A stretch of 64,000 nucleotides of DNA from Nemertoderma westbladi (GCA_032718475.1 JAUCBJ010006459.1:1-64000), one strand, 5' to 3'; positions 59 to 34,499 are shown, counted from the stretch's first letter. Numbers and translations: made by a program. The notes: generated by a model from the sequence alone, not told the origin.

Positions 59-3000
59 TTAAACTGCCAAAGGTCTGAAAGCGCGAACATCCTGGTCACT
101 TACCTCTAGTGAACGTATTGGTGCTCTAGTATACCAACCTATGGGAGTTCTACATGCGTAGGGGTTGCCCGCTGTAATAACAGATGGGCGTGTCTCCCAT
201 ACCTGATGTAAGTTAAACTGGTCTGTCCCAATTAACATCGCAATTGAACGATAATTAACAGGACATTCCGGTATTCCAAGATGTCGGAAATACTTACGAT
301 CTTCCGGTGATTGCTCTGGCACAGGGCCGAGCAAGTTACTAAAGTCCTTCGTAGCTGCAAAGGTCAAATTTCTTACCGGAAGTAATGAGCGCTCCTCCTT
401 GCTGTGTTCCGCTTTGGAAAGAAGAGTGTCTAAAGTTAGTTTTACTCTTGTCACAGGAATCGCTCTCTTACCATGCATGCTGCTTACAGTATACTGAGCA
501 GTCTTACCTTGACTCATGTCCGTAACTACGTCGGCTACTTGTTCGTCGACATAGCTATGCGATGACGCAGAGTCTAAGATGGCGTATATACGCTTGCTCC
601 CTCGGGTTCCGGTAATCTTTATAGGAATCACGCTAAACCCTTTCAATTGGTTCTGTGTGAGGAGCGTTATCGATGGCTGTTCCTCACCTGCATGCACGTA
701 GAAAGTGTCGTCTTCCTCCTCGTCCTCGTCCGATGATCCTGACTGATCCATACAGTCGGTATAAAAGGTACGGATCTCGCGCGGCGCATGCTCCTTATAA
801 AGCGCGTCGCATCTAGCCGCTTTATCTGGATGCTCTCGTCGAAAGCGTCTGGTCGGAGTATGACTGGTTGTGTGAAGCAACGCGTCATGGTTACGTCTAC
901 ACAGAGAACATGTATCGTCGCTCGGGCAATCCTTCCGGACGTGTCCTGGCTTCATACATCTCCAACAGGAATCTAGAGATCGGATTTGGAGTCTCCTCTC
1001 CTCGATCCCCAACTCTTTAAAAGCGCGACATCCACGTAGTTTATGTCCGCTATGGTTTCTGCCGTTCCGCTCGCAGTATGAGCATCCCACAAAGTCCGCC
1101 GGCAACTGTTGTCGTGGCTGCGTGGTGCCGATAGCCGTCAGAACTTTAGAAGTCTCAGTAGGGGTGGCGTAAGTAACGGCTTTCGCATTCGTCGGAAACG
1201 GTTTAGTCCGATTCGGCGCAGAAACAGTTATCCCTTCCGCCGCGATATGGTGATCGGTATAGTTCGATCGAGTCTCAATCACGGCCTCCCGTGAAATAAG
1301 TTGATAGACATCGGTGAGTTTTAATAACCCTCCGGCCTCTTCGCGCTGGTACTCGATGCGTCGCCATTCTCGTCGTAGTCGATGGTGAAGTCGACCGATT
1401 ATTCGAATGAGAACCGTCGGTGCGTTAGCGTACTCGAGTTGTCCAATGGACCGTAAAGTCCCTATAGCGTTCTTTATTTCGTCCGCGAGTCGTAAAAGGT
1501 CGATCGGTCTCGAAATGTTGCCTCCTCTGCAGAGGTCTTCAATAATGGATTTAGCCATGGCGACATTACCGCCGTAAATCGAATACAAACGGTCGTACGC
1601 CAATTCAAAGGCATCGGGAACTCCAATAAAGGTTTCCGCTAATCGTTTCGGCTCACCAGACAGAACTTGGAGCAAGTAATTAAACTTCTCCGTCGAGGTG
1701 AAAGCACACTTAGCGATCTGGGACTCTACGTAGTCTACCAGTGTGCGCCAGTGTTTCGCGTTGCCAGAGAACTTCGGCGGTTGCTGTGCCGGTAATCCGT
1801 GTCTAGCCGCGAATTTCGCAATCTCGCTAACTAAATCCAACTGTCCGCGTCCCTGTTCGGCGGCGTCGTCCAGTCGCTCCCTTCCGCGCGTTGTTCGTCG
1901 GTAGGAATTATTAACGGGATCTTCTTCTCGATGTGTCGGAGTCCGTCTAGTCTCCTGTTCTCTCCTCGGTGGTCGATGTTGTCTAGGTTGTTCCAACTCC
2001 ACGCTGGTTCGTGATCGATCCGACGGTTGCGCTTCGAGTCGCTCTTCGAGTTGAGCTATTCTGTCCGTCATCTCGGTGAACTGTTTGGCGCTGATCGTTT
2101 CCGCTGGTTTCAACGTGGGTTTCTGTTGGGGTGTTTCTCGTGGAGGATTGTCGATATAGGGGTTCGTCGATCGTTCCTCCCGTTTGTAATCCGCTGCCGC
2201 TGCCGCTCCAGTACGGAATATTTCCCGTTCCGTCGACTCCGAGTCACTGGATGAATCGCTGTCGTCCGGATAAGGTGGTTGGCGGGTTCGCGTCCGGCGT
2301 ATTATTCTTCGTCGAGTTCGTCGTGGTCTGGGATCTACGGCTCCTCGTTGTTCGGTAGGCTCGCAAGCCTTCCACGAAGTCGTAGGTCTCGTTAAACATT
2401 GGGTGAGAGGTCTAGTAAAAACATCTGAGTTAAGTTCTACTGTAGGTTTATAAATGACTGGGTTCGCGCAGCACGTCACAGGTTTAACTTGCAATGGTTT
2501 ACTCACCTGTTTTACTGTCATAAACGCAGGTTCGTCTCTCTCCACAAGTAAACTACGACTTACTGTAGGTGGACTAGTTATGTTACCTGCTAAAATTGGC
2601 GATGAAGTCGCCCTAGGTTGCGGTATTTCCGTCACAACAAACCTGCTACCTTGCGTCGGGCGCACAGGCGTTATTTCCTTAGGTTTCGTAACAAAGACCG
2701 GTTTTATCGGAGTCGTGGGTTTGAGCATAGGAATAACTTGGGGAAAATGTTTACAGTAATCCTCGACGAACTCCTCTCCTCGATCTATCGCTCCCACGCT
2801 TCCTTCCTCGATTCGCTTCTGGATTCCGCGATATCGAGTCTCCATGCGATCCAGGGCAGACAAGTCGTGTCCAGTTCGAGACCTTATAGATCTATCTCTC
2901 GCGTCGAGTTCGAGGTCCGCTTGCGCGTTCGCTGCCTCGCGCGATCTACGATTCAGTTCGAACTGGAGCTGCATCTCTCTTTCGCGTCGATCTGCTTCCT

Positions 3001-4243
3001 GTTGTTGTGCCGCTAACTCCGCTTCCTGTATCGCTAAACGAGCGTTTATTTGTCGCGCCTCCAACTTGGCCCGAGCGTCGGATGCTGCCTTTTTCCGTGC
3101 TAACTCGTCAGCTGCGTTTACCGCCGCAACTCGTGCTAACTCGTCGGCTGCCTGTCGTGCTAACTCGTCGGCTGCTGTCGCCTGTCGTGCTAACTCGTCG
3201 GCTGCTGCCGCCGCGGCCGCTTCTCGCGCTAAGTCCTCCTCCAGTCTCCGCATCTCTGATGCTTCGAACTCAGCCTGTGCTTGAAGTTTCGCAAGTTTCG
3301 CTACATCCTCTCTGCGCTATTTTTCTCCTTCGATGGCGATCTGTGCCATCTGTAGTTGCGCTTCTTCCTCGGCGACTTGTTGTCGGCGTGCAACCTCCTG
3401 TTGTTGTCGAGTAATTCCAGACGCTGTTCTACTAACGTCGCCAACGTTGCCAACGTCGCTCCGTACGCTAACGAACGATCTATCCAGTGGTGGATGTTGG
3501 TAGGCTCGCGAGCCTTCCGTAGTGAGAACTTCCGTCGTCCCTCGCGGTTCGACTTCCGGTTCGTCGATCGGTACGCCGCATCTACGAAGAAAATTGGTCA
3601 GCGTTTCCAACCTTCCGTCCAGGCAGTAGAGTTCTTCTTCCTCTTCGGGTTGTAACAACGCGTCCGAAACTGACTCACCTAGCAGTTGGTCGAACTGCTC
3701 CTGTTGAGCCAATCTTATCACCGACTTAAACTGGATAAGGCTTTCTCTCGCACTTACCAATTTATCTACTATCTTTACCTGAGTAAAGTTGTCGCCACGC
3801 AACTCTGCAAGTTCGTGCAAACCTTCAAGTTTATCTACGGAGGCATGTACCCTACTTTCTATCCTTACCTGTAAGGTGTAGAACTCGTATCTCGACATCG
3901 GGGCGGTTAACTCGCGTAAAACGCGAAAACCTTCTCCGAGGTTCCGAGTAATCTGGGCCATGTGTCCTCCTATACTTCTAATAACGTTCTCCTGGCTTCC
4001 AGTCGAACTTACCATGTCCGGTTCCCGCGATCTAGTCTGCGGGACGGTAAGGAAATCTTCGATTCTGCCGTCGCCACGCGTTGCGGCTTCCGGTATTTCC
4101 GTTCGGGGTACCGGCGACGCAAGCGGTGTGACATCGGTGGAATCTCGGGTTCTCCTTCTCGGTTCGTCTACTGTCGATCTGTCCGGGTCGCACGAGTCAT
4201 AGTCGGTAGGTGGGTATCTCGTCGAATGGGGTGTGTCACTCAT
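59..4243 (-). pseudogene. Gag-protease of element C, frameshifted near 3300 and ending shortly after the protease
   Basis: Two consecutive ORFs match the single N-terminal frame of A. They contain a DUF1759-like gag core, Cys/His knuckles (CWRCMKPGHVRKDC) and an aspartic protease motif (ILDSAS). Confidence 0.88.
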
Positions 4244-6973
4244 GTCTTATTATATACGTCAAGTACGGATAATAAAATGTCAAAGTGTCTGAATGTTGAA
4301 GTGTCAAACTTACCTAACCGGTACAAATAAATCAACAAGTCAGAATGTCGAAATGTCAAAATGTCGAAATGTACAAATGTCAAACTTACCTTGATATATA
4401 TATATATCATATATATACCCTAACCGGTACAAATAAACTAACAAGGTATATAATAAAATAAGTAGTAATCTAGCCTACCGGCTAAATTTGTACGAATAAG
4501 TGAGATAACGGTATACGTTAACAAAATGTAGATCAACAAGTATAAACAATAGGCCAAAACAGCAACGTCTAACGGGAAAATAAGTACCAACAACACTACT
4601 AATAGACAGTGAAACCCACAAATTTTGAGTACTACTGTGCTTTCTTAAGTTTGAACGACGCGAGTCGTAAAACTTACGTTCCTTTGATCTTCCAGTCGTA
4701 CAAATTCCCAAATACAAACCGGACGTGGGTCTTTCCGTTTTTCGGCGGCGCGGACGAATTTATTGTCTCCCAAACTTTGCGAAAAGCGGTCTAATCCTCG
4801 AAGCGGTCCAGAAATGAGTCCTTGAGTCCTGAAAAGGTCGAAGGTGAGAGTTTTACTTCTACGCTTACGAAAAATCTTCCTAGGTACCGATACAAATTGG
4901 TCTTTAAACCCTATGTACCTTTTCAAGTACCGAAAGTAACACCGCACACACACGGCGTAAAACAAAGTGCTACAAACTAACTGTTAGCTAGTCAAAGATT
5001 AAATACGAAAGTACTAGCTACCCTAAAAGCCTACTGAAGCAGGGGACGTTCTAAATTACTAAATTTACTAACCTTAGTTTTTAAATATCTCCTACTTTCA
5101 ATAGCTAACAATCGAAATAATACTATAAACTACGGCGGAAATACTATATACTAATTTATATAAATACTTCCTACTGTAAGGGTCCAGTAGTATACCGCTT
5201 ACCAGATCCTAGTAACGATGTATCTTACTATGAGACTCTAGTAATGTATACGGGCTTGTACAGTATCTGACAACAAATCCCAGTCCAGGATATCTAAACA
5301 AACAGATACAATACACAAACGACTACTGGCGAGGAACAGAGCCTTGTATCTATTCTATGTACGTGAGCGGGTCTAATGCCTACGTACTAGACAGAAGGAT
5401 ACCTGTCCTCTAACCGGTGAGGCAGATGTACAGTTACAGTAACAGACCAAACTCACGGGAAAACAATCCCCGCGCAGCGAATCCTAACTATCACTGACAG
5501 TCCTAAATACAGTAACTTGCCGCGGTGTGATTTATATGGTTTATATACGAGCTAGTGGGTTAACAGACCTAGCGTAACAACACTGACAGTCCTAAATCAG
5601 TCGAAAAGGGGTCGTACCTAAATGTAACAATAACTGATCCCCCTGTACGAAATCAGTCTAAAAGGTCAGGCCTAAATGTAACAATACCGTTGTCCAGACA
5701 AACAACAGTTTAATAACGAAAGTGAAATACTCCTTATTGCCGCAACTAAATCAGATCCTAATTTTACAAATACAGACAATTTCCACCTAAAGTAATGTAT
5801 AGTACGCTATAGCTAGTAGAACTTTAAGGGCAATATGTTTTAGGGCGTGTGTGTGTGGGTGTGTTACAAATAAAACAATTTCGTGTAATTCCTTTTACTA
5901 GGTTTTAGTGATTTTCTGACTAAATGATACCGTGCGCTAGCTACTAAAATAAACTAGTCGCGTTTGTAGAACTTTATACTCACGAATGACGTCAAAGCTC
6001 TCTCCTTCCTATCCACAACCCAATGGGCAACCACAGTGTTAGTAACTACACCCGTGATCGGCACTAATACCAGATTCTGGTTGTAAGATAAGAATAGGGG
6101 TTAATCGCTACCGTACGTTAGCTGATCTGGTATACTAATTTAATTCTAGAACTTTGTTGCTGCGGTAGTTAGCAGCAATACCTATCAGTACGTGGCAAGG
6201 CGCGGTAGGATATTAATAAACCTCCCTAGGCCAAGCAGTGTGCCGGTAGCAGAAATACTCCTTGCCTGATCAAATAGCTAACTCCAGACAGGGGGGGGGG
6301 GGGGGGGGTGTACTAATGTACGTTCTACAAAGCGAACCGGTACCAAACAGTCAGTGCTATGAATCACTAAATTATGGAACATATGCTGTCCGTACCTAAT
6401 ATGTACTCGCGTACTGACGAATGGCAATAGTTCGCACCTGTAGGAAGTACAGGTTTTAACCCAGGGATTCGTAGGACTTGACAAAGGGGGGGGGGGGGGG
6501 GGTTGTCTGGATATAATTATTTGATCCTAAATTTGCGGCGTCCAGTACGGTGTCACGCTTACCCTGATCTATAGGTCTTACGGCGGGCAAGGGCGTCGAA
6601 CAAAGTCTTACCTTCTCACAAAGCGGGCGCTGCATAGCAAGTGGAGTATTTCGAAGGGGCAAAGGGGGTGCGCGGTCGATCCAATGTGGGCGCTAGCGTG
6701 TTGTGGACATCCCTTCCCTGCGTTGCTTACGGCCTAACGATCTAGGCTGCCATCTCCCTGACGTTCGGCTGTCCCGAAGTAGGACCAAAGGAAAACATGT
6801 CAGGAATTTGCAGTATATTTACAGTTTTACAAAAGGATTTATCAAACGAAGTTTCAACAAGAAACCGAATAAACTAATTTTACAAAAGTAAGAGTTTTAC
6901 AAAGTGGTAAGAAGTGACATAATATAAGGTGTGTGTGACGTGATAACAGGTAATAACGGAAGGCAAACCGGCC

Positions 6974-7220
6974 TTTTATACTAGAAATTGCACATGGAAA
7001 CTAAACAGAATTTTCCACAGCTTCACCATTGAGCAATGAAGTGCTTCGTGCCCTATGATTGGCCCAGCTCATCGTTCAACGCAGTCCGGCCCTTACACTA
7101 ATCTGGGACATGGAATCCTAACAGAATTTTCCACTGCCTCACATTTGAGCAATAAGATAATTTATGCCCTATGATTGGCCTGGCTCATCATTCGCTACGC
7201 TGTACGCTTCTCATTGGCCT
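6974..7220 (-). promoter_or_regulatory. Pol II promoter in LTR C: duplicated ~115-bp unit with CCAAT and GAAnnTTC motifs, TATAAAA at 6980-6974
   Basis: A direct repeat at about 6991-7075 and 7107-7190 carries GAATTTTC and ATTGG in each copy. A third ATTGG is near 7213. TATAAAA reads on the minus strand. Confidence 0.6.
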
Positions 7221-7253
7221 ACCAATTAGCACCACACGAAAATAAATGGCCCC

Positions 7254-7343
7254 AAAATACAAATTTCCCGACTGGGATTCGAACTCGTAACCTATGTAAT
7301 GCACTATGTACTTTAACGCCTTAACCATCTGACCACTACGCCA
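7254..7343 (-). ncRNA. tRNA-like Pol III cassette (A box, B box, T-run) in U3 of LTR C
   Basis: The minus strand reads TGGTCAGATGGTTAAGGC ... GAGTTCGAATCC ... TTTT. The acceptor stem does not pair. Confidence 0.6.
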
Positions 7344-7599
7344 CGAGAGTACCTAAGGGTTTTATGTGTACAAATATGAATAGGCATATTACATTACTGT
7401 AGCTCAATCAAAATACGTCGGATTTTCGAAAGTTTTTACGTTAAAGTTAAACTACAAATGCTATCTTATAGTGAAATAATTCATCACCACGGGGTTAATG
7501 TTGACCCCCCACCCCCCCCCCAAACAATTGCTCATAAGAGTAGCTCTACTACTAGTATCGGCATGCTGCATTGCAGCTGCATTTTTAAGAATGCTGTGC

Positions 7600-7790
7600 C
7601 GGCTTGTGGACAAAATTGCGCCGCCACAATTCCCTATCACCCATGACATTTGCTAGATCATCCGCATCTTCAAGGCCAGTGTCCTTTAAGATCGTCTCAA
7701 GAAAGTCATGGGCTGTCCACCATACTTATTCACTCCGCTTGTTCGGCCTTAGGTATAGTTGAGAGACTGCTAGAGAGGCTTATTGTTGAG
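7600..7790 (-). mobile_element. Possible 3' remnant of an RTE-like LINE
   Basis: One minus frame reads ...DDLANVMGDRELWRRN, which resembles the C-terminus of RTE-clade ORFs. It is short and degenerate. Confidence 0.3.
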
Positions 7791-7814: not shown

Positions 7815-7925
7815 CTAAAGTGCCTAGTTGAGCGCCGGTCCTGCAATCTATTGGTTGTAGGTTAAACCCCGCCAGGTTCCTCTCAGCCTTTCAACCACTG
7901 GGGTCGATAAAATGAGTAGCAGTTA
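7815..7925 (+). mobile_element. tRNA-derived SINE fragment with conserved central domain
   Basis: A degenerate B-box (GGTTAAACCCC) is followed by TCAGCCTTTCAACCACTGGGGTCGATAAAATGAGTAGCAG. This resembles the central domain of widespread metazoan SINEs (Meta/Nin-type; recalled, not searched). Confidence 0.45.
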
Positions 7926-7944
7926 AAAATTACTGGAAGCAAAA

Positions 7945-9008
7945 CTTGGGATAGGAGTAGCGCCCACCCCTACCTTCGGGTAGCAGATAGGAGTAGCGTC
8001 CACCCCTACATTCGGGTTGCAGATAGGAATAGCGCCCACCCCTACCTTCGGGTAGCAGATATGAATAGCGCCCACCCCTACCTTCGGGTAGCAGATAGGA
8101 GTAGCGCCTACCCCTACCGTCTGGTAGCAGATAGGAGTAGCGCCCACCCCTACCTTCGGGTAGTAGATAGGAGTAGCGCCCACCCCTACCTTCGGGTAGT
8201 AGATAGGAGTAGCGCCCACCACTACCTTCGGGTAGCAGATAGGAGTAGCGGCCACCCCTACCTTCTGGTAGCAGATAGGAGTAGTAGCGCCCGCCCACCC
8301 CTACCTTTGGGTAGCAGATAGGAGTAGCGCCCACCCCTACACTCGGGTAGCAGATAGGAGTAGCGCCCACCCCTACACTCGGGTAGCAGATAGGAGTAGC
8401 GCCCACCCCTACCTTCGGGTAGCAGATAGGAGTAGCGTCGACCCCCTACCTACGGGTCACAGATAGGAGTAGCGCCCACCCCTACACTCGGGTAGCAGAT
8501 AGGAGTAGCGCCCACCCCTACCCTCGGTTGGCAGATAGGAGTAGCGCCCACCCCTACCTTCGTGTAGCAGATAGGAGGAGCGACCACCCCTACCCTCGGG
8601 TACCAGATAGGAGTAGTGCCCACCCCTACCCTCGTGTAGCAGATAGGATTACCGCCCACCCCTACCTTTGGGTAGCAGATAGGAGTAGCGCCCACCCCTA
8701 CACTCAGGTAGCAGATAGGAGTAGCGCCCACCCCTACCCTCGGGTAGCAGATAGGAGTACCGCCCACCCCTACCTTTGGGTAGCAGATAGGAGTAGCGCC
8801 CACCCCTACACTCAGGTAGCAGATAGGAGTAGCGCCCACCCCTACCCTCGGGTAGCAGATAGGAGTACCGCCCACCCCTACCTTTGGGTAGCAGATAGGA
8901 GTAGCGCCCACCCCTACACTCAGGTAGCAGATAGGAGTAGCGCCCTTCCCTACCCTCGGGTAGCAGATAGGAGTAGTAGCGCCCGCCCACCCCTATCTTT
9001 GGGTAGCA
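7945..9008. repeat. 36-bp minisatellite (GCAGATAGGAGTAGCGCCCACCCCTACCTTCGGGTA)n, about 29 units
   Basis: Head-to-tail units with point variants are directly visible, with no unique spacers. Confidence 0.95.
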
Positions 9009-9519
9009 GCTATCGAGAGAGGAGCCTTTGGGTCGCCTCTGGCTTCGGTCTACTTGATTTTTTGTTAGAAATATACATTATACAGATCTGCGCATTTAAT
9101 AAGGGTGTACTGTACATGTGTTCATGGACTGTTATTTTGCACTCCCCGCCAACTCCTTTTTTCTAGTATCTACTATCAGACTGTGACCGTAGATACTTGT
9201 TACTACTGTTAATGTACCATACACTGCAGTACTGGCGCAATGGTGCTCAACAGAACCTGCAGCCCTACAACAACCCTGGGTACTGGTATATTATAATATT
9301 GTAACAATGAATAATTCTGATATTAGTTGATTTAATTATATTAATTACACTAAACCTGCATATTGGCATATAAATAAAGTAAAATTTTTTGCTTTGTCGC
9401 TTATTCAATATCCAATGAAAACAAAAGATATTGAAAACGTGTGAAATTAATGTTGACATAAATACTTTCTACTAACTATCATTCTTTATTTTAATATTTG
9501 TATTATTTTATAAAATTAG

Positions 9520-11765: not shown

Positions 11766-12297
11766 TGTTAGCTTATTCAATCCCGCTAACACCCCATAAA
11801 GTTGTAAGCCGATAAGCAATATTGGGAGCCACGAGATTGGGCAATTAACCAACTCGTGCCATCCCAATAAGAGTGGGAAGGAAGCACACAATAAAGGGTC
11901 AGGGGCCAAACCCCTAACCCAGAGAGTACAGGTGGAGTGAACGGGAACACTCCACGGGGCGCCAACAAGGGTAACAACCAATCAGAGGGGGGCAAGGCAT
12001 CGATTGAGTAGAGCAATAAGGCCACCGTGCAATATAACCAGTAACACAATGTCAGTAATTCAGTTATCTCAGTGCAGTGTAGGTTAGTTAGTTTAGATAG
12101 GGGAGCACGGGACTTTAGTTACCGTATCCCGCCTTCCGTATATTATACTACAGTCATCATATCTATATCTTATACCTATCAATTATTATACACCGAATAT
12201 CAGAACTCATTCACTATTTCCGTTTACTCTTTATACACGGCGGGGACGCGTAAACTAAACACCGGATAAATCGGGATCCCTCCTGGATCCCGTCACA
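11766..12297 (+). repeat. 5' LTR of B (532 bp)
   Basis: Near-identical to 43010-43541 (2 substitutions seen). TATAA lies near 12034 and a TCAGTT Inr near 12060. Confidence 0.97.
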
Positions 12298-18616: not shown

Positions 18617-18742
18617 TATAGAATTATATTCCCTAAATGCCGTGGATTTTCAAAATTTGATTTTATTCGGATTAACTTTGTAAAGATTGCTTTGAGTTCT
18701 CATTCGTATTGGTTCTATCATTTGTACATCTATCGGTCAAGT

Positions 18743-18829
18743 GGTTCAGTAGCTCAGTCGGTAGAGCGTTGGAAATTATATGTGTAGTAGGTGTTGAGTT
18801 CGAATCCTAGTAAGTGCGAATTATTTTTT
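18743..18829 (+). ncRNA. tRNA-like Pol III cassette in U3 of the A 5' LTR
   Basis: TAGCTCAGTCGGTAGAGC (A box and D arm), GAGTTCGAATCC (B box, 18796-18807) and T6 at 18824-29. There is no acceptor stem or normal anticodon arm. Confidence 0.7.
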
Positions 18830-18879
18830 GTACAGAATTTCAACTCATTTAAATTAACCGCTACAAATTAATTGCATTT

Positions 18880-19060
18880 ATCTGTACCAATGAGACTGTA
18901 GTTATTTGATTGTAACCAATGTCGTGCAAGTTATATATTAGCTGGACCAATAGCTATCTTTAAAACCCCGTTAGAACCCATAGAACAATCGAGAATTTTC
19001 TCGATTGATTGCGGCACAAATTTGCTATATAAAGGTGCGATTTGTTCATTAGTTATTCAC
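18880..19060 (+). promoter_or_regulatory. Pol II promoter of LTR A: three CCAAT boxes, HSE-like palindrome, TATATAAA at 19026-33
   Basis: CCAAT at about 18887, 18916 and 18947; CAATCGAGAA-TT-TTCTCGATTG at 18986-19007; TATA box followed by TTAGTT about 20 nt downstream. Confidence 0.65.
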
Positions 19061-21340
19061 TTCTACTTCACAGATTATCTTATCAATATTCTGTTGTGCT
19101 TAGTTTATTTCAGATTACATTGTACATATTATTATAATCTTCTGTAATAAAGTCAGAATATTCTCTCAGCTTTTCTATCTGTTTTACTATGGATTCACTA
19201 CGGTGAACTAACTCAGGGACAGGATGGCCGGCTAGAGATCGGGCCGCAGCAATGAACGGGAACATCACGGGAATGTAGACGAGAGACAACCCGCAATACC
19301 ATTTAGAGTTATTCGCCCATCGCCTGAAAGGTTAGACAGCGTTCGATCCTTGCTACCTAAGTGTAAGACCAAAAGATCAAAAGGTAGACGTAGTGACACG
19401 CTGTAAGCCCAAAATTACATCATAGGGACTGTACTGTCTTGATTCAGGAAAACCCACAGTAGACCTTCACATTCCTACGGGGGGGGGGAGAGAGAGCGCA
19501 GGCAGATACTAGTACGCAGATAGGACGTAGGCACACCGGTACAAGGCATACACATTGGTTAGGGTGCAGCAAACTGTACGCTTAACTCTTGCTAAGTACA
19601 GGTGCGTGTGCGACTATTTGCAGTACGACAGTGTCCATTACATCAGAACTTGTAGGCTAGGGGGTTGCTGTGTTTTTACCTGAATTGGGATTGTACCGTT
19701 CGGGCGGTAGGGCAGTTTACGTACTAGGCGCAAATAAATTGAGGCTATCAGGGATATACTAACATCTACCGTGTCCCCGCCAACGCCCTAATAGGAAGTT
19801 ACCCGGACTACCTGGGTGACTAAAATTCTAGATAGGAGCCAGGATAGCTATTAGTACCTGTACGCCTACAGTAGTAAACTAACACATCTCTTCTTAGTAT
19901 CAGGGACCTGGTACCTAAAATTGCCGAATTCTGGGCGTAGTATTAACCTTATGCCTGAATTTGAGTCCTGGAAATACGCAAGAGGGGAAGGAACCTTATC
20001 ATTCGTGAGTATTGGACCTACAAGTTACAAAATTAGAATATTCGTAAATGCACACCGTACCCAGTAATTATATATGTGAAGGAGCAAAACTGTTTTGACC
20101 GTTCAGAATTAACACGCGCGTTAGAAATTATTTACACCTCGAAATATATAAAATTAACTTTTGTCCGTACTGTGCTTTGCCCGCTAGTTAGACATCTCCA
20201 AATCTCTGCCTGTACCTAGCTAGCGTCTCTTTGCCCAACCATATAAATCACACCGCGGCAAGGTATACGAGCCTCTTAGTCCGTCAGTGAGTCAGCCTGA
20301 TTTTAGGATTCGCTGCGCGGGATTTTGTTTTATCGAAGTTTGTCTGCTCGTAGACTGTTTTCTGCCTCACCGGTTATAAGAGATCGATACTGCAATATAT
20401 TCGCTTACTTAGTTTATTGTTTTGGTGAGAAGGTCGGATTTATGATTTGATTTACAAACTTTACAGTAGGATATTGCAGGTATTGTTACCGTCTCTTCGC
20501 ATAGTAGGAATAGGCGTATCTCTTCAATTAGTAGGAATATGTTTTACTGAACTACGGTTCGGTAGGACTAAAGTTATTTGAAAATTCTGTATTTTGAGGT
20601 AAAAATTTGTATTTGATTAGCTAAGTGCTAATTTTTTGAAATAAAATTTGATTTGAACCGCGTGTAAAATATTTTTGGAATTGAATACCGGTGTTTTAAA
20701 AGGGTTTAAATACCATATTGTACCGGTACAAAATTTTCGTAAAAGTAAAACCTAACTCTTTTGTTTTTTCAGGATTCAGAACTCATTTCTAGACTGTAAC
20801 GGGAGCAAGACCGTGTTTAGCAAGTTTGGGAGATAGATAACTCAACAACTTTGGTTGGGAAAATCGCGTTTCGTCCGCAACGTTAAAAACGGAAAGGTTC
20901 ACGTCCGGTTTGTATCTGGGAATCTGTTTTTCTGGAGAATTATTGGAGTGGGTGAGTTCGAAAAGTTGCATAAATAAGTTAGGCATTACCGTATTAGTTA
21001 AAAATTATTGTGGGTTCCACTGTCTCAAGTATTTATGCATTCCGTATGATTTCTTTGTTCATTGCTGAATTAGTCCGTATTATTGTATTTAATTTACCTT
21101 TTGATAACGCATATCGTTATCCGAATTATTTGTTATAAAATTGGCCGCTAGGCTAATTTTATTATATACTTATTCCGTGACATTTATTTGCTGTAAAATT
21201 GGCCGTTTAGGCTAATTTTATCCATCTGCTATAAAATCGGCCGGTAGGCTAATTTTATAAGACTGTAATTAGTACCGTTTAGATAAATACGGTAAACTCG
21301 ATACTTTGACACTCACTTTACTTGACTTACAACTACCGAA

Positions 21341-24300
21341 ATGAGTGACAAACAAGACTATACGAAAAATACACAAACCGACTATGACTCATGTGACGCG
21401 GATAAGTCAGCAGCGGAAGAACAACAGGGGAAGACTCGCGAGCCTACCGAACCTACACCGTGTGCATCACCAGTACATCCAACGGGAGTACCGGATGCCG
21501 TAGTACGAGGCGACGGCAGGACCGAGGACTTTCTAACTGTTCCGCAACCTAGATACAGGGAAACGGAAATGGTAAGTTCAGCAGGAAGCACAGAAAGTGT
21601 GGTTAGAAGCGTCGGTGGATACATGGCGCATATAACCAGGAGTATTGGAGAAGGCCAACGCTTATTAGACGGGTTGACCGCTCCGATGTCTCGATTCGAG
21701 TTCTACACCCTCCAGGTTAGAGTGCAGAGTAAAGTATATAAGTCCGTAGATAATCTAGTTGGCCTACAAGATCTAGCTAGACAGAGACAGGACATGGATA
21801 CTCAACTTAGAATCCTCGAGAAACTAATGATCACTAGAGAGAAACTGATTCAGTTTAAGTCGACGATTAGACAGATACAACAGGAACAAGCGGACCAGTT
21901 GTTAGGTGAGTCAGTTTCGGACGAATTATTACAACCCGAGGAAGAACAGGAACTGTACCGACTGGATGGACAATTGAAACATCTGACGGACCACTTACGC
22001 ATGTGCGGCGAGGACGTCGGAGATTGGGAAACCGTGCCGGAGGCTACGAGGGAAACTTCACTCGCACAAATCAAACCGGTACCGGGAACACTAGATCAAT
22101 CACTGGTGAGTATTCGCAGCGAAATTGGCGAGGTGAGTATGGCTACGTCAGAAATTGCTCGACAACAGCAGATCTACAGACAACAACAGGAGTGGGAGGA
22201 ACAAACTCAACTCATAATGGCACAAGCAGCAGCAGAAGAAGAGAAACTACGCGTTGCGAATGTTGCGAGAATCTCTCACCTGCAAGAACAAGCTGAGTTG
22301 GAAGTAGCCAAAATGGAAAGGTTAGAGTTGGACATTGCACAACAAGCGGCAGCGGCCGAGTTAGCGCAACGAACGGCAGCGGCCGAGTTAGAGCGACAAG
22401 CGGCAGCGGCAGCGGCAGCGTCCGAGTTGGAGCGACAAATGTTAGCTTCAGAAGCGAGAACCGAAATGAAAAAACGGCAAATAAAGGCTCAATCAGCGAT
22501 ACGACAAGCGGAGTTCGAGGCGCAACAACAACAAACGGAACAACGCGAGAAAGAAGTTAAACTTCGTTTCGAACTCGAGAAGAAGGCGAGAGAATTAGCC
22601 AACGCCAAGGAAGACCTGGATCTACAAGCCCGCGATCGATCGATGAGATCTCGAGACGGACATGATTTAGACCGGTTGGAGGTAAGGCACCGCCAAATCC
22701 AGGAACGAATGAAGGAAGGTTCGATAGGAGCACCCGGACGGGAACGACAATTAGTAAAAGACTTGTGTCAACGATTCCCACAAGTAAATCCTATGTTTGC
22801 ACCAGTTACGACTAAGGAACCTGTTTCGATTGCGGGTAGTAGTAACATTTCTCCTATCTATGGTGCGACGGAACACAGGTTTGTTATTCCGGACGAGTTT
22901 ACACCGCCAAGAGCAACGTCGTCGCCTATTCCGAAGGTCAAGGTAAGTAACCCGCCGATTACAGATCGTAGTAGTTTATTAGTCGGACCTGCACTACTGA
23001 CGACTAAACAGGTGAGTCCACCTCTGACGCCACAACCTGTTACACACTACGCTTACCCAATGACGTTTCGACCTACAAGGCCAGTTGATTCAAATGCTGT
23101 CATTCGCCCACCGGTTCAGTTTACATCGCAATCTACGACTTCAAGGAAGACTTGTGAGCCTACCGAACAACGGAGAACAGTGGATATGCGACCGTTCAAC
23201 CAGTTTGCATCGCAATCTACGACTTCGAGGAAGACTTGTGAGCCTACCGAACAACGGAGAACAGTGGATACGCGACCGTTCAACCAGTTTGCATCGCAAT
23301 CTACGACTTCGAGGAAGACTTGTGAGCCTACCGAACAACGGAGATCAGTGGACGATGTTCCAAAGCAAAACGTTAGAATTCGTACGACGCAACGGACGCG
23401 AGCACGTCGACCACCGTATCCAGGTGACAGTAGTACTTCGAGCGAGTCGGATTACCCGGAATGCGAGGTATTTAGAACAGGAGCGGCCGACAAATGTAAA
23501 CGTGAGCGTTCGGATAATTCATTTATCGACAATCCTCCACAGAATACACCAACACAAAAGGCGTTACAACCAACAGACGCGATCAGTACACAACAGTTCG
23601 CCGACATCCTGCGACCAGTTGTTAACAAGTTGGCTCAGATCGAGGAACGTCTAGAGGAAGGTTATACCGACAGTTCGAGAAATTCCGAATTCGAACACAA
23701 TAGACACCCGAAGGAACCACAAAGACCGGTACCTTCAAACCCCACATCGTATCAGGGAAAAGCGCCAAGAAGGGATATCAACAAGGTTACCAACCAAGGA
23801 CGCGAAACTCTGAACGTTGCAGAGGAGATAGCGAAATTCGCAGCCAGACAGGGATTGCCGGTACAACAACCACCGAAGTTTTCCGGTAGCTCAAAACACT
23901 GGCATACTTTCGTAGACTATATCGAATCCCAGATCGCTGTGTGCGCCTTTACATCACGGGAGAAGTTCAATTACCTGCTCCAAACGTTGTCAGGAGAACC
24001 TAAACGTTTGGCGGAGACTTTCGTCGGTGTACCGGACGCTTTCGAACTAGCGTACGATCGTTTAACTTCGATATACGGAGGTACAGTTAGTATGGCCAGG
24101 TCAGTAATAGAGGAACTCTGTAAGGGAGGGGCTATCACTAAACCCGTCGACTTACTAAAACTAGCTGACGAGATCAAGAACGCTATCACTACCTTAAGAT
24201 CAATTGGACAACTTGATTACGGGAATACCCCTACAGTCCTATTAAAGATAATAGGACGACTCCACCATCGACTTCGTCGGGAGTGGAGGAAGGTCGAATA

Positions 24301-27300
24301 CCAGCGAGAAGAGCGGGGAGGATTCTTAAAATTAGAAGATGTGTACCTTTTAATATCCAAGGAGGCAGTAGTAGAAACTAGATCTAACTACACCGACCAG
24401 CACATCGTGGCAGAAGGAATCACACTGCCATCCTCCAACCGACAAAAACCCCAGACAACATCCACTAAGACGGCCACTTACACCACACCGACGGAATCAC
24501 GACAATTCTCGGACGGAGGTAGGGTATCTGCGCCCATTGGGACAAAACAAACGAGACAGCAACTTGGTACCGACTTCAGTGGCTGCCAATACTGCGAGCA
24601 TCTAGGTAAGCGGTATATCGGTCACAAGTTACGAGGTTGTCGACAATTTCGCGAGTTGAACTCGGAAGAACGACGGCTGCAAATACGGCCACTGGACTCT
24701 TGTTGGCAGTGTACGCGACACGGACACGTCCGTAAAGATTGCCCAAATACCGACACTTGTCCATCCTGTGGACGCAACCACGACGGTCTGCTCCACACAG
24801 ACAGCCACACGCCGACAAAACGCTTCGCCAGGGAACACCCGGAAGCAGCAGCGAGATGTGATGCGGCCTATAGAAAACGAGAATCGAAAACGACTCCAAC
24901 CTTCGTGACCCATATTGAGGATTGCTTCTCAGAACAATCCGGATCGTCGGACGAAGAATCAGAAGACGACGAATATTCCAATGGAGACGAACAACCGTCG
25001 ATCGCGCTTCTGACCACTGACCAACTGAAGGGATTCAGTGTAATCCCGATTAAGATCACTGGCACAAAGGGGAGTAAGAGGATCTACGCGATTCTAGATT
25101 CAGCCTCATCTCATAGCTACGTGGATGAAAAGATAGCTGACGTAGTGACGGATCTTAAACAAGGTAAGCATGTCAGTTATACAGTAAGTAGTATGCACGG
25201 ACAGCGTGCAATACCAGTAACACGAGTTAAGTTGGACTTAGACACTCTTCTTCCGAAATCGCAACACAGCGAGAGGGAGAGGTCTTTGTTGCCCTTTAAA
25301 GATCTAACCTTTGCGGCCACGAAGGACTTTAGTAACCTACTAGGTCCAGTGCCGGAACAATCTCTAGAGGACCGTAAGTATTTCAGACACCTTGGTGTAC
25401 CTGAATGTCCTGTCAATTATAGATCGGTAGCAATGCTGATCGGGACAGACCAATTCAACCTACATCAGGTGTGGGAAACCAGACCATCGGCAGTTGTAGC
25501 GGGAAACGCATACGCCTGCAGAACGCCGATAGGGTGGTATACTCGAGCGCCTGTGCGCACACTAGACGTAAGTGACGAGGAAGACGATGTACAGAGTACA
25601 TGTAGTTTATTAACTACAAATTCAATTCATTCCTTCTCACACGACGTGAACCATACTACACTACAGTCGACAAAACATAACAGACGTGTAACTAGTATGA
25701 TAAGTCACAAGGAGCAGCTAATTCACCAGGTGAGTTTAGAACTTGGGGAGAAGACGAGTCAGCTAGAGATTCCATCGACGACAGATGATAGGCTTGCGAG
25801 TCTACCTACCCCAATAACCTCAACAGTGCCCGTCGAGATCGATGATGACGCGTTGAGAAATCATCAGTTGGAACAAGCTGTACTAGACAAGGAATTAACG
25901 GAGAAGACTATCAGGTGGTTAGAACAAGATACAGCTGAACCTGGTAGCTACGAACCTTGTATGTCGGAACAGGAGAAACAATCTCTGAAGATCATGGAAG
26001 ATACTATCCACCAGACGAAAGACGGACATTATGAGGTAGGGATGTTATGGTGTAGCCAAAGTCCTAAACTCATAAACAACTATCCACTGGCTTTAAGACG
26101 TCTACACTCAATACGGCAACGTCTATTAAAGGACGAGAAGGCCCATCTGCAGTACAACACTCAGATGGAGACGTATTTGACTAAGGGATACGCTATCCGA
26201 ATGACTAACCCAGAGATAGAGACTGACCAGACATACTACCTGCCACATCACTATGTGAGACATCCCGACAAACCAGATAAAGTACGCGTAGTCAACGACT
26301 GTGCGGCTCTGTTTGAGGGAATGTCCCTCAATAGTGAGTTGATGGATGGACCAAACATGAATAATTATCTTATGGGGGTGATTATGCGCTTCCGTCAGCG
26401 TCAAGTAGCTTTTACTTGTGACGTTGAAGCGATGTTTCACCAAGTGAGAGCGTTAGAGCGAGACAGAGACAGTTTGCGGTTCCTCTGGTACCCGGAAGGA
26501 GACTTAAGTCTACCACCGGCGACTTACCAAATGCAAGTTCGCGTTTTCGGTGCCAGAGACAGCCCAAATTGCACGATGTACGCCCTAAAGCAGGCCGCTA
26601 GGGATCAGAAACACCTGTATGACCCAGAGATAATTAGGATTGTGGAGCGTGACTTTTATGTAGATGACGGTTTACAGAGTTGCGACACAGTAGAACGTGC
26701 TACAACAGTAGCACATCAATTACGGGACTGCTTAGCGGGCGGAGGTTTTAACCTCACCAAATTCGCCTCAAACAGTGCCGAATTAGTAGACTCATTCGGG
26801 ACGACTGAGCGTGGAGGTGGTGACATAGACCTAGAGTTCGAACCACTACCGACGACTAAGGTGTTGGGGCTCTTTTGGGACCCAAACACAGACAACTTTC
26901 GAGTGAAAGTGAGACTGGACAGTCAAGAGAACACACTGACAAAGAGATCATGCTTGTCAAAGTTGAGCCGATTGTTCGATCCGTTAGGATTCATCAGTCC
27001 AGTGATACTGCAAGCCCGCATTTATATGCGCAGTATATGGAAGGATGGAATAACATGGGATGAGCCGATCTCATCAGACCAAGTGGACTTATGGAAGACC
27101 TGGGAGGCGGAATTATCTTCGCTAGAGGATTATTCCATACCCAGGGTTTACTTTCCATTACAAAGTACATTTCCTGACAACTTGGAACTACACTGTTTTT
27201 CTGACGCCAGCGACAACGGTTTTGGTGTGGCAGCGTACTTGCGCAGACAAGTAGAATCAGACGAGTTCGATGTTTCGCTCATTACTTCTAAGGCTAAGAC

Positions 27301-30033
27301 CATGCCTACTAAGTATATGACGACACCACGAGCCGAGCTACAAGCCGCAACCCTGTCAACCACCATCGTGAACCTCATACAGACAGAACTACAGTCGAGT
27401 TTACAGATATTTTATTGGACTGACGCGACGTTGGTTTTATTTTACATAAACAACGACACACTCGAATTCAAGACATTCGTTGCTAACCGTCGCGCGGAAA
27501 TTCTAGACCGTTCAATAAAAGGGGATTGGCGACATTGTCCCGGACCACAAAACCCAGCTGATATTGCGTCGCGAGGAATGATGCCTGAGGAATTCTGTAA
27601 ACCGGAGAACAAAGAATTTTGGCAACACGGACCCCAGTTCTTGCAGAAATCGACACAAGATTGGCCTCCGTTATACGACAACAAATCTAACACTATCCCA
27701 AAGGACGCCGAAATCAAGAAACCAAAAAAGGGGAAGACAAAGAAAAGGACGACGGCGGCAAAACTCAAGAAAAAACCGAAGGCGAAATGGAAAGATATAA
27801 CTTCAAAGGTCAAGAGAGGAAGACTTGCGAGCCTTTCTACACCAGACATATCGCCAGACGGTCAACCAGACGCGTTACTAGACGGTCAACCAGACATTCT
27901 ACCAGACACTAGTGACATACTGACAAACAGTAAAGCCGCAGTTTCCCTATTGGAGCGGCCTTCTATTGACAAACAACCAGATACGTTACCAGACGTATCG
28001 CCAGACACATTACTAGACAGTCGACTAGACATTTTGTCAGAAACATCACAAAATGTTCTACCGGACATTAGTAATTTATCGACTAACAGTAAAGCCGCAG
28101 TTTCCCTATTGGAGCGGCCTTGTATTGACAAACTACCAATTTTGACACACTTGAGCAACCATAAGCACGGTGAAACCTCATGTATTACAGATGTGGGTAG
28201 TACCTACGCTAATGTAAATACAGGTGTTACTTTGCGCTCAAGAGACATACCGAACTTGCAACCTATGGTGAAACCTGGGATTAATATCGGCAGAAAAATT
28301 AGTTTACCGAAACCCACTGATCCCATAGAGTTCAAACCACCATTAACGATCGACTTACAAAGTACCGACAATCAAGGTAAGAAGACAAAGAAGGACAAAT
28401 TACTTGTAGACCCGGACGGATCAACAGTCAACAAGGGAATACCTACCGGCGGACCCGTGGGCCCTTCTAGTAATTCAAAACCTTCCAAAATCTCAATTGA
28501 CTTACCTGATGACGTCACAAATACTCATGTCGACCGTATTGTAAACCTAACAGATTCTTGGACAAACGCTTGCCGAAAATTAGCGTGGATTGTACGTTTT
28601 GTACAATACGTTAAAGGCAAACGTGACTTTACACGTCGACTTACATTGACTGAGATTGACAGGTGTGAAATTAAATTAATTCGCCATTACCAACTGCGAT
28701 ATTTCGCGCGCGAATTCACATCTATAAATCAAGGTCAACCAATCAAGTCGTCACCAATACTGAGTTGGAGTCCGATTATTTATAATGGCTTAATTTGTCA
28801 TAAATCTCGGCTTCAAAACATTGACTTTAACACAAACTTTAGGTACCCAATAATAATACCGCAACACCACGAACTACAACGTGCAATGATACTGGACGCA
28901 CATCTACATCTGAAACACGCTGGAAGACACCACTGTCTTTCCTACTTACGTACTAGATTTGTATTAATTTGACCCAGTAAAGCATTAAGTTCAGTGACAC
29001 GTACGTGTATTATTTGTAAAAAGGTACATTCTAGAATAGGTACCCAAGAAATGAGTGAACTACCACAAGCACGACTTCAAGCATTCAAACCACCTTTTAC
29101 AGAGACGGGAATTGATTGCTTTGGTCCCATACATACGAAACGTGGACGTATACTAGTAAAACGCTGGGGACTGATTTTCACATGTATGTCCAGTAGGGCA
29201 GTTCACATTGAACGTGTGATGGATCTTTCCACCAACGCGTTTATACTAGCACTGCGGCGATTTATTGCTAGACGCGGACTAGTAAAATGCTTGTACTCAG
29301 ACCAAGGGACAAACTTCGTTGGTGCTCGGAATGAGATTGCTAGAGCCTTTAAGAAATTAGATCATGATCAAATCTCGAACGAACTGCAACCTCACAAGAT
29401 TGTTTGGAAGTTCAATCCTCCAGATAGTCCTTGGAGAGGCGGAGTCTGGGAGAGATTAATTAGATCTATAAAGACAGCCATGGCAAAGGTCATTCCAGTA
29501 AACCACATATTAACAGACGACCAACTGACAACATTGTTGAAATCGAGGCAATACTAAATACTAGACCAATAGTATTAGTACCCGATGACAAACAATCTCA
29601 ATTTGCTTTAACACCAGCACACCTGCTAATGCAGGCACCGACTACTTTGACGCCGATTTCTATTCCAATAGAAAGCGACAGCTACGGTAGAAAAGCGTGG
29701 AAAATCACGCAACTACTAGCTAACAAATTCTGGGAAATATGGCAAAACCATTATTTGCCCTCTATTTCTGCCAGAACAACTTGGTACAATAACACCCGCG
29801 CATTAAAGCCGGGAGATCACGTGCTGTTGGCAGAAGTGAATCTAAAAAGACGCTTCTGGATAACAGGTGTAATTTTAGCCACACATCCATCTATGGATGG
29901 AGTGACAAGAACTGTGACGGTACGGACAATTGACGGTCGTACAGTAGACAGACCGACTCAACGTCTCGTACTTCTTGAAGAGACTCGTAACGAGTCTGGA
30001 GACTACAAATCTCCACCTAATACTAGTAAATAA
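21341..30033 (+). pseudogene. A gag-pol polyprotein (Gag, PR, RT, RNase H, IN); nonsense at 28970 and 4-bp deletion near 29535, both in the integrase region
   Basis: A 2543-aa ORF plus two downstream pieces. Motifs: ILDSAS, FYVDDG, FSDAS...RAEL...WTD...NPAD, H..HAG..CIIC, DCFGP, SDQGTNF, GGVWERLI and a GPY/F-like tail. The lesions are defined by comparison with A'. Confidence 0.95.
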
Positions 30034-30700
30034 TTAGGAGTTTACAAATAGATTTCCACGTACCTGTACACTGTAGTAAGGACAGCGGTGGGATTCCATT
30101 GTCTTTATATGTGAACATTGAGGGTAGTACCCTTATGTGTCACATAGGAGCGGGATTTGTAGGTATAAGAAATGTAATTCTACTTGGAACTCACAATATT
30201 GAGACATTTTTGAAATTTTAGACAATCCATTTGGATTTGAAAATTTTTAAAAATTTTCTCCAGTGAATAGATTTCAGGGTACAGTCGGGTGGAACTTAAA
30301 ATTAGAGAAACAAGAGAGGAAGACTTGCGAGCCTTTCTTAAAAAAAAAATTTTTTAATTAAATTTTACACGGTCTTGTTTCAATAAGTTACGTCGAAATA
30401 GACTCCCCTATATTTATTACTAATTCTTGATTGCTTATTTTCTGATAATAGTTTGGGATCAAAAGGTGAGTATTTTAGACTCACAGCCAGTTTAGCCCAA
30501 ATTCGTTTTTATTTCGGCAAAAAATTTTAGATAAGAAGCAGCGTGTCATTAAAGAAACCTTAGATCTTAGGCTATGGGTAGGAGGTTAGAGCGTTGTCGA
30601 AGCCCAAAGGGCAGACGAAACTCTCACGTCTCCTCACAACTAACTACAAACTCTGTTGTATTCCCTCTAGTAGTAATGATTATGTAACTACACCCTAATT

Positions 30701-33700: not shown

Positions 33701-34426
33701 CCCCACGACAGCGGATTCCGAGTGGTGCGCGAGTATCTGTTACAAATTCACCCGGATAACAAAAACACGTGGAATTTTCAGAAAGTCGTTAATCGGATTA
33801 CGTATGGTGAATTCGATCGTTTCCGAACTGAAAAGCGGAACAAGGGAGCTTGGTTAACCGTCGCATGGGCGTACCGAGCCGCGTTTTACCACAAACGTAT
33901 ACGAGCGAGCGTATTCGAGGAAGAAGAGGTCCTAGAGGCGACAAATATACCAGCCACTCCGGTTGCGCCGTCTGCACGTCACCCTCGGGAGGACGGGCAG
34001 GGTAGGATCATACGGGTCCAAAAGGTGGGCCAACAATTAAAGAAAATTATTAATGTAGAAGAACGCAAAGGAGTTGAGCCGACTATTCGAGTTACTCGGG
34101 ATACGGTATCACTTCCAAGAGAACCAGTAGGAGGGTCGGGACATACACCAGCTGATCAACAGGGGGCGCAAGCTACTCTTGGGTCTGCGTCGTCCGCTTC
34201 TCGCGCGTTCCCAGACGTTCTACCAACTGTAGTGACGACTGATCGGTCACGAGGAATCGGTCGAGGTTTTGGGATGCTAAATAAACGAATTTGCGAGGAA
34301 ATAGTCGCACCGTCTCTCAACGTCCCAAGTAAACCAGTGACTCGCCCCACAAGTCCCATATCGCGAGCAAAGTCACCTGTGCGCAGTTTTCGAGGACGCG
34401 GCAGGGCTCGATCCACTAAGCGATAA
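30701..34426 (+). CDS. Accessory ORF2 of A (1241 aa): DEDDy 3'-5' exonuclease-like domain plus three CCHC zinc knuckles
   Basis: Intact ORF in the env position. FYDNEG (ExoI DxE), LPKMVRNMILDKTVVKVGSGVREDL (ExoII, WRN/EXD-like), YVDT and QYYLAIE (ExoIII-like). Knuckles: CSKCGVAGHHMAKC, CGWCGDQGSHTFYTC, CTYCNIKGHRASEC. Confidence 0.8.
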   Translation: MEKGIQGEPRWGYDIQEEAAAPFERFGAKDYTIFGIKELSESTAKLVRTKYDSNVLKRRQNALNERIESLRQTFNELYPYDALCDTGDISEDPDTEISRLYHTMQYLKAHEPMPAVRDEFDGMHLYRRTRGDDRETKEAFSVYKLYYQCGSCMREQRNAIPMRLNKENPEPILARCSNHQQLRYQEGGYPLSNPYHSFAMTGPKAGETVIYPPKVVEPDVFELTLDEANQSTREKKEALSLYRAYKAFEKGEMEEWGGRLASLPCHWTSHDQTSAKEMTPEVFESINFAQNVIQRLQIASPERPREMQPYSTSTTKPLSTTLNFPISIPVRQDTTYEIPIVDHPEIISNLEFLPAVVFSDMSKIYDLRRHITQKVVHNVPPHIQDFKELDRAGADIAPSNLKGYLTKTIRLWIGTGTFESDTDIAADWRGKVIRFDEDKDIEKIWQPSEELLDEWTRTFRSFQENGYMFYDNEGGSHQQSLTSKTIQIRAADGVLHVFSRQRSDKRMPIPPANTKRHHLITDIVKKMDQACNIDARMLPKMVRNMILDKTVVKVGSGVREDLISDFAGMTDSDDRLPTPYVDTRPLILWSIEQGYFREYNTQKTGTGYISYLLFNWDYKENKRNKYIETYGEGDTPDMSEFESQLKWRGCMYWAITSPPRAVLQYYLAIESSVNVCLIADIVSRTLKRHPLCLGEDHTFYMEGRIRTDVFRRFLEPFYNSDAQCNAFTRAGFSIFRDVYLRCAGSLIERPSMFTLLPNEGERIVEITDESRQTRAPIGHLGDEFEVTTTIADDPLEELLEIERNLPKKSQTEIRQLEATDAIVCIQPSETYQPIDPDDYDYSVGGSARPIGDLIYERVWYPANTMCSKCGVAGHHMAKCSGKHITTTQLICGWCGDQGSHTFYTCWRFMAQCTYCNIKGHRASECQLRDIPYEHESVKLVRKLFDEWEDLADEHVSAQRRRFPLRAHLGFWAVNPQTMMSEGYISAMPQYDELIEVVDILPHDSGFRVVREYLLQIHPDNKNTWNFQKVVNRITYGEFDRFRTEKRNKGAWLTVAWAYRAAFYHKRIRASVFEEEEVLEATNIPATPVAPSARHPREDGQGRIIRVQKVGQQLKKIINVEERKGVEPTIRVTRDTVSLPREPVGGSGHTPADQQGAQATLGSASSASRAFPDVLPTVVTTDRSRGIGRGFGMLNKRICEEIVAPSLNVPSKPVTRPTSPISRAKSPVRSFRGRGRARSTKR

Positions 34427-34499
34427 AAGGGAGGGCAAGGGTGGACGTAAGACTCGTGAGCATTTCTTATGATTTGTGATTTATTTTGAATTATATGTT

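Follow-up and report, generated by a model that had tools for sequence, protein, structure and literature searches.

A putative self-primer in the LTR of a BEL/Pao retrotransposon and its intron-split counterparts in relatives

The window, a stretch of 64,000 nucleotides from Nemertoderma westbladi, contains a nest of BEL/Pao LTR retrotransposons. Element B1 (18617-37204, 18.6 kb) has been inserted into pol of element A (11766-43541), and B2 (49331-62889), a copy in inverted orientation, is truncated at its 5' end. The DNA between these elements holds a decayed A-like piece and an endonuclease ORF of the LINE type (45036-46805, 47974-49374). The 5' LTR of B1 (18617-20530, plus strand) has its partner at 35281-37204, with the target-site duplication TTGAA, and the 5' LTR of A (11766-12297, plus strand) is paired with 43010-43541. 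The B LTRs start with TA and end with TA rather than forming a TG...CA frame (18617; 49332-51231), and two relatives described below, L019 and L064, also end in TATA. Moreover, the window carries a tandem array of 36-bp units at 7842-9121 and a very high-copy, SINE- or MITE-like short repeat with many different flanks at 7546-7736.

Judged by its sequence, the third element, C, is a BEL/Pao LTR retrotransposon. It lies on the minus strand, where its 5' LTR (5175-7486; 2312 bp, TG...CA) is followed by a gag-protease part (59-4243) with a DUF1759 domain (E 1.3e-09 in a domain search). The gag-protease frame is broken in this copy by an in-frame stop at 3319-3317 and ends at position 59, past which the element continues beyond the start of the window, so that its reverse transcriptase and any extra ORF are located outside. 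The gag-protease parts of C and B share 56% identity over 1147 columns. In the sister element B, the domain search detected DUF1759, Peptidase_A17, Integrase_H2C2 and DUF5641. When the RT-RNase H region of B (not of C) was used as a query, all 120 matches listed were BEL/Pao polyproteins of marine invertebrates carrying PF05380; among these matches, the identity was 40-44% for 118 and 30-33% for two.

The partner LTR of C is outside the window, and the LTR end at 5175 rests on contigs, on depth and on the TG...CA frame. A contig of run X5 stops exactly at 5175, and the summed contig depth, which is a sum of depths and not a copy number, approximately doubles or more across this position in the runs X1, X2 and X3. 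However, three of the contig pieces listed (two from X1, one from X6) begin at 5182. At the LTR start (7486), three X3 contigs diverge from the window into a string resembling that before the 3' LTR of B. Thus, the LTR end placed here by an earlier note made from the DNA alone is supported. The possibility that the real LTR end lies elsewhere, next to a TGG-containing primer binding site (PBS), was also considered; no such arrangement turned up, because the motif CA-N0-3-TGG is absent from the whole minus strand between 5699 and 4300. Furthermore, none of the three elements C, B1 and A has a TGG within 30 nt downstream of the LTR. The statement of the earlier note that C has no tRNA-type PBS therefore holds.

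A TATA-like box at 6974-6980 (minus) in the C LTR aligns with a TATA-like box in the B LTR, and transcription of C would accordingly start near 6950. The B and C LTRs are most conserved in a block (5411-5541, minus, and 20237-20376; 73% over 145 columns) with another TATA-like motif, which is located about 300-370 nt upstream of the LTR end and may be a second promoter. A splice-acceptor-like site in the 5' leader of C (4829-4840, minus) is conserved with B, where it ends at 20772; splicing from a donor in the LTR to this site (4829, minus; 20772) would drop the PBS from the mRNA. A tRNA-like A-box/B-box stretch is present in U3 of C (7275-7343, minus) and B (about 18740-18812), with the B-box common to both, and is followed by T runs; it may be a Pol III unit or an insulator. 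This stretch was rejected as an encoded primer because it gave no tRNA call, no Rfam match, no cloverleaf and no complement of the PBS.

On the minus strand, the LTR of C ends with ...CCCTTACA, which is directly followed (offset 0) by the candidate PBS GTAGGAAGTA (5165-5174), containing no TGG. A perfect 10-nt complement of the PBS, TACTTCCTAC, is located inside the LTR of C itself at 6440-6449 (minus), 1265 nt before the LTR end, and is likely to represent the 3' end of a self-primer. Both GTAGGAAGTA and TACTTCCTAC occur once in the 64-kb window. The pairing stops at the LTR boundary, where A is opposite A, as had been pointed out earlier, and a G-U pair (5164 with 6450) at the other end lengthens the helix to 11 bp. 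The chance of about 0.002 originally assigned to this match was too low: 10 nt at offset 0 were reached in 16 of 3000 dinucleotide shuffles of the C LTR (about 0.005), and in 32 of 3000 if offsets 0-3 were admitted. Under a loose rule, which accepts offsets 0-4 and matches that are either contiguous or formed across any GT-AG join, 13 of 100 shuffles of the C LTR succeeded. Taken alone, the match in C is real but modest, and it is not significant under the loose rule; its support is therefore comparative and comes from A, B and more distant relatives.

The site in C lies about 500 nt past the TATA-like box (its end is 540 nt after the box) and, unlike that of Tf1, is thus unlikely to lie at the very 5' end of the transcript. 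A start of transcription at the site, with an initiator motif, was considered as well and dropped after an upstream exon and an intron had been found in the relatives. The reverse idea, that the site is the 3' end of an RNA, is not favoured because poly(A)-like signals follow the site, at a distance of 13-98 nt, in 9 of 13 relatives; in C, no AATAAA is present after the site. According to fold predictions, the primer site is held in a 7-bp hairpin (6436-6454, minus) with five of its bases in the loop, and the PBS falls in another hairpin. The predicted site-PBS duplex of C (-15.1 kcal/mol) falls among the values of the spliced relatives. This helix does not appear when the 1816-nt 5' RNA of C is folded in silico, and forcing it costs 12.9 kcal/mol.

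The neighbouring elements have a similar layout. In B1, the own-LTR complement ATTCCTAC (19471-19478, plus) pairs with the post-LTR sequence GTAGGAAT at 20531; the match is perfect over 8 nt, extends to 10 of 11 nt with one mismatch and is identical across all three B LTRs of the window. In A, the 9-nt complement TTTAGTTAC (12114-12122, plus) pairs with GTAACTAAA at 12298. Shuffling reached the 8 nt of B1 in 103 of 3000 cases (29 of 100 under the loose rule) and the 9 nt of A in 15 of 3000 cases (10 of 200 under the loose rule). Thus, an own-LTR complement at offset 0 is found in all three elements (C 10 nt, B1 8 nt, A 9 nt), and their post-LTR sequences differ. If the partners are swapped, the PBS of C with the LTR of B and the PBS of B with the LTR of C both stop pairing at 7 nt, precisely at the position of the one compensatory change that distinguishes the PBS and site of C from those of B. 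The B and C LTRs align poorly in the region of the site, and about 120 nt further on B contains another segment of similar appearance that is not complementary. The site is 1052 nt (B) and 1265 nt (C) away from the LTR end, as opposed to 62-216 nt in the relatives. Both B1 LTRs end with about 27 extra bases (20504-20530, 37178-37204) including a second copy of the PBS start, and the 3' LTR of B2 (ending near 49332) stops before these bases. They look like the product of a mis-primed or slipped round of replication that lengthened the LTR.

Relatives of these elements were collected by scanning metagenomes with an alignment of 24 reverse transcriptase sequences, by which 79 loci were kept; a search of viral contigs yielded nothing. 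Both LTR ends are visible at 14 loci; L030 was dropped for belonging to the same family as L028, which left 13 relatives without mutual LTR similarity. In 12 of the 13 relatives no TGG follows the LTR, the exception being L025, which reads TTGG. A complement of 10-15 nt, starting 0-4 nt after the LTR end, is present in the own LTR of every one of the 13 relatives. This complement is contiguous in only three of them (L053, L064 and L068); in the other ten it exists solely across a GT-AG join. Although the join search required only GT and AG, the introns, 67-186 nt in length, begin with GTAAG in 7 of the 10 spliced relatives and have a T-rich acceptor in all of them. Moreover, the last two letters of the site are AC in 13 of the 16 elements, C included. 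The duplex predicted between site and PBS is strengthened by splicing in 10 of 10 spliced relatives, and the predicted probability of the helix after splicing is at least 0.45 in six and at most 0.05 in four of them.

None of 100000 permutations with swapped LTRs equalled the matches of the 16 elements to their own LTRs, and the match length observed in a relative was reached in 0-6 of 200 shuffles each. In nine of the ten spliced relatives the GT-AG join performed better than all five decoy joins, with a tie in L043. However, a decoy join reached 14 nt in L064, a relative with a contiguous site, and single joins can thus mislead. A fixed rule was also applied blindly to 16 further loci with a known LTR start, of which 14 were matched, compared with 22 of 320 mononucleotide shuffles. 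Six of the 16 loci repeat a family already counted; the ten new families comprise six spliced ones, two contiguous ones and two, L018 and L011, without a match. In L018, a TATA end is followed by a TGG-containing site (at about 2924) with a 10-nt complement upstream. The other 49 loci had no usable LTR and were left out of the counts. Taken together, the two sites covary across A, B, C and the relatives, a point on which the earlier note had asked for evidence. Its claim that C carries a perfect complement in its own LTR is confirmed, and its proposal that the RNA of the element supplies the minus-strand primer is supported by the missing TGG and by the covariation, priming itself being a step that the pattern suggests. 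The proposal also has to be refined: an intron interrupts the complement in the majority of the relatives, and some copies of the C family alter or lack the site.

On a reverse transcriptase tree of 25 rows, A and B form long branches outside the 23 relatives, and the contiguous state is scattered, requiring six changes. This distribution fits with repeated loss of the intron; because of the midpoint root and the long branches of A and B, the direction of change is one that we infer. The best match in C is likewise contiguous rather than formed across a join, and C looks like a member of the intron-free type.

The variation within the C family cuts against a fixed site in C. In one shallow X5 contig, four of the ten letters of the site are changed, and about 6438-6592 is missing from a deep X6 contig, together with the primer site and the acceptor at 6477; the PBS is visible in neither contig. 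Both variants may be covarying subfamilies or dead copies, and the X6 contig is a candidate for a subfamily, a solo LTR or a sequence from a related species.

Both A and B possess an extra ORF after pol. The ORF of B (30680-34426, plus) encodes a DEDD 3'-5' exonuclease-like domain (about 31967-32869) together with three CCHC-like zinc knuckles, and the ORF of A (40606-41862, plus), also DEDD 3'-5' exonuclease-like, is homologous to it (E 6e-07). Nine homologues of the extra ORFs were found. Of the DEDDy motifs (ExoI D-x-E, ExoII D, ExoIII Y-x3-D), the D-x-E, D and Y residues are invariant in alignments of 7 and 11 of the proteins, and the last acid is E in A, B and one homologue and D in four. 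Pfam gave no match for the extra ORFs, and sequence searches of the PDB returned nothing useful. The Atlas places the ORF of A near 3'-5' exonucleases (0.94, with 178 of 256 features shared), PF01612 being found on 34% of the cluster. The structural model of the domain is poor (pLDDT 47.6; 32.8 for a single-sequence model of the B domain), and the best Foldseek hit is not significant (E 0.12); the hits ranked 1-12 are, to judge from their titles, presumably nucleases of the DEDD 3'-5' exonuclease type. No longer homologues of the exonuclease alignment were found among proteins of 1891-5000 aa, which is a weak test. Furthermore, no homologue of the extra ORF is detectable in the 79 relative loci, and the ORF is thus not needed for the primer layout.

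The paired sites, their covariation and the layout of the introns are observed, and from these we infer the steps of splicing, cleavage and priming, which may proceed as follows. Pol II would start upstream of the site and thereby place it within R. The 5' copy of the LTR would be spliced in most of the clade, and the exon junction would complete the primer; the C lineage would have lost the intron and carry the primer ready-made. Once the local hairpins are opened, probably by the nucleocapsid of Gag, the site could pair with the PBS. A cut of the RNA immediately behind the last C of the site would then follow, for which the RNase H of the element is the most likely enzyme by analogy with Tf1, as far as this can be taken from the available parts of PMC7175516. 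In a less likely variant of this step, the DEDD-like extra protein would trim the primer end. The reverse transcriptase would extend the primer, and the first strand transfer could take place via the stretch of R that extends from the cut to the poly(A) site. The intron would persist if the 3' LTR is copied unspliced and be lost if it is copied spliced; an unspliced 3' copy would also be kept from competing for the PBS. Finally, a PBS recopied from the primer would enforce covariation, as expected from the general scheme of LTR replication.

That element C is primed by some RNA derived from its own LTR appears very likely. More specifically, it probably uses the contiguous internal site of the LTR in a Tf1-like manner. 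The broader reading, which we somewhat favour, is that a wide animal clade of BEL/Pao elements has dropped tRNA priming and that an intron in the LTR splits the complement of the PBS, so that the spliceosome would build the primer, only spliced 5' ends would start reverse transcription and the unspliced 3' copy could not compete. In this broader reading, C and its neighbours would be derived forms that have no intron, possess giant LTRs and have captured a DEDD exonuclease, which may finish the 3' end of the primer.

Four other explanations have to be weighed. The primer of C might also be built by splicing: removal of a possible 346-nt GT-AG intron (6477-6822, minus) gives a second complement of 9 nt at offset 0 that ends in AC, and the contiguous 10-mer would be redundant. 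The putative donor is situated 158 nt after the TATA box, which compares with 140 nt in L028 and L049, and a long pyrimidine run precedes the acceptor. However, the 9 nt are not above chance for the C LTR, in which unrelated PBSs and decoy joins reach 8-12 nt. With a matrix trained on the relatives, the donor (5.0) and the acceptor (-11.0) obtain low scores. Moreover, no corresponding join is found in B, and this acceptor, too, is missing from the deep X6 variant. A splice-built primer in C is thus rather unlikely. The primer could instead be a separate short LTR transcript acting in trans, the tail of which is trimmed by the DEDD-like exonuclease; this would be a variant of the cutting step in the preferred explanation. 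Such a role would suit the DEDD-like ORFs of A and B with their preserved acidic motifs, and a loop in cis is less easy to form in B and C, where the site is far from the LTR end. Yet the ORF has no detectable homologue in any of the 79 relative loci, which have the primer layout in common, and ORFs of this kind occur in Gypsy-type elements of rotifers for which the available portion of PMC5408684 reports no link to priming. Hence, a primer supplied in trans is judged unlikely.

Priming of C by a host RNA, be it a tRNA half, an unusual tRNA end or another small RNA, would turn the match in the LTR into a chance event. The BEL/Pao family is indeed described by the ICTV as tRNA-primed (PMC8742986), half-tRNA priming exists in Copia lineages according to the accessible sections of PMC6317226, the match in C alone has a p value of 0.005-0.13 and some variants lack the site. 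However, a host primer would demand separate coincidences in A, B and C, and it gives no account of the different PBSs of 13 of 13 relatives that match their own LTRs, mostly across splice junctions; we regard it as quite improbable. The least probable of the four, and a highly improbable one, is that the two sites do pair, but for the sake of RNA structure, dimerisation or the packaging of spliced RNA rather than for priming. The internal position of the site, away from the 5' end, and its location in a predicted hairpin loop suited to a kissing contact would agree with such a role. But the duplex always begins 0-4 nt from the LTR end, exactly where a primer must end, and elements without a tRNA-type site would still need another primer. 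Self-priming from an LTR-derived RNA thus remains the preferred explanation for C.

Self-priming as such is a known kind of replication start. It has been reported for Tf1/sushi elements and predicted for the plant Tcn1 and TAR lineages (PMC6317226, PMC7175516 and PMC3601003, each as far as its text was available). Like C, Tf1 and Tf2 of Schizosaccharomyces pombe have no tRNA site and a PBS directly after the LTR, and a complement of about 11 nt is located inside their own LTR, from which a cut is needed to free the primer end (accessible parts of PMC7175516 and PMC6317226). In contrast to Tf1/sushi as portrayed there, the elements studied here are BEL/Pao, the site appears to be internal to R and most relatives assemble it across an intron. 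Its position relative to the transcript start probably differs as well, since the site of C ends 540 nt after the TATA-like box and an upstream exon precedes the site in ten relatives. Moreover, pol of Tf1/sushi is of the Ty3/gypsy chromovirus type whereas the domains of the C group are those of BEL/Pao; C would thus work alike without being a member. For the plant lineages Tcn1 (gypsy) and TAR, Houba and Osr-1 (copia), self-priming has been predicted from a complement of at least 10 nt in the own LTR, starting 0-5 bp after the LTR (available sections of PMC6317226). Complements of this length are present in C and in 13 of 13 relatives, while those of B1 (8 nt) and A (9 nt) are slightly too short. 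These plant lineages belong to other superfamilies, and the method takes contiguous sites only, the same sections of PMC6317226 making no mention of an intron-split primer.

In other respects the elements resemble the Belpaoviridae of the ICTV, with a DUF1759 gag, Peptidase_A17, DUF5641, an integrase, a single gag-pol frame and TG...CA LTRs (PMC8742986), as well as a 5-bp target duplication in B (TTGAA in B1) and paired LTRs in A. In the ICTV profile, the PBS has 18 nt and corresponds to tRNA-Arg or tRNA-Gly, the LTRs measure 0.2-1.2 kb and the genomes 4.2-10 kb; C differs by having no tRNA site and a 2.3-kb LTR, and B1 by its 18.6 kb. Since replication of BEL/Pao elements is only assumed in this profile (PMC8742986), the 18-nt tRNA PBS is taken as descriptive and not as defining the family. 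The extra ORFs are reminiscent of the DEDDy ORF3 of Juno and Vesta from bdelloid rotifers, which also follows pol, has a DEDD-type fold and has been suggested to act in RNA 3'-end processing (PMC5408684, available portion). According to that portion, Juno and Vesta belong to clades other than BEL/Pao, and it states no role in priming, whereas here the ORF accompanies self-complementary PBSs.

A literature search outside subscription journals, Repbase and GyDB also returned no report of self-priming or of an intron-split primer in BEL/Pao elements. The accessible text of PMC554778, PMC3118150 and PMC6238403 has no passage on the PBS or on tRNA priming, and that of PMC8220671 and bioRxiv 2023.10.26.564294 contains nothing on BEL/Pao self-priming or an intron-split primer. 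Thus, the kind of priming is known, and what is new is its proposed occurrence in a superfamily not described as self-priming together with a primer that would be assembled by splicing in most relatives. If this is true, BEL/Pao would become the third LTR superfamily with predicted or demonstrated self-primers. A splice-assembled primer would, moreover, couple the onset of reverse transcription to the processing of RNA, and the papers found describe no such control for LTR elements. Self-priming would explain the apparent absence of a PBS in many marine BEL/Pao elements, and the own-LTR complement could provide a simple rule for locating BEL/Pao LTR ends. The proposed reading predicts specific splice junctions and RNA ends, and the exonuclease-like ORF is a candidate for the maker of the primer end. 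A partial precedent for tRNA-independent priming in BEL/Pao may exist in elements of the Cer7 type of C. elegans, which reportedly have a PBS matching no host tRNA, a candidate for an element-encoded primer and an exonuclease-like extra domain. This candidate is said to derive from an internal 3' region and not from the LTR, and no splicing is said to be involved.

Finally, a variant of C was observed in the runs X1 and X2 (corresponding to 5147-5181 of the window), in which the LTR end and the PBS are repeated. The 30 letters between the repeats resemble inverted copies of the PBS, and the variant is possibly a trace of template switching at the priming site.
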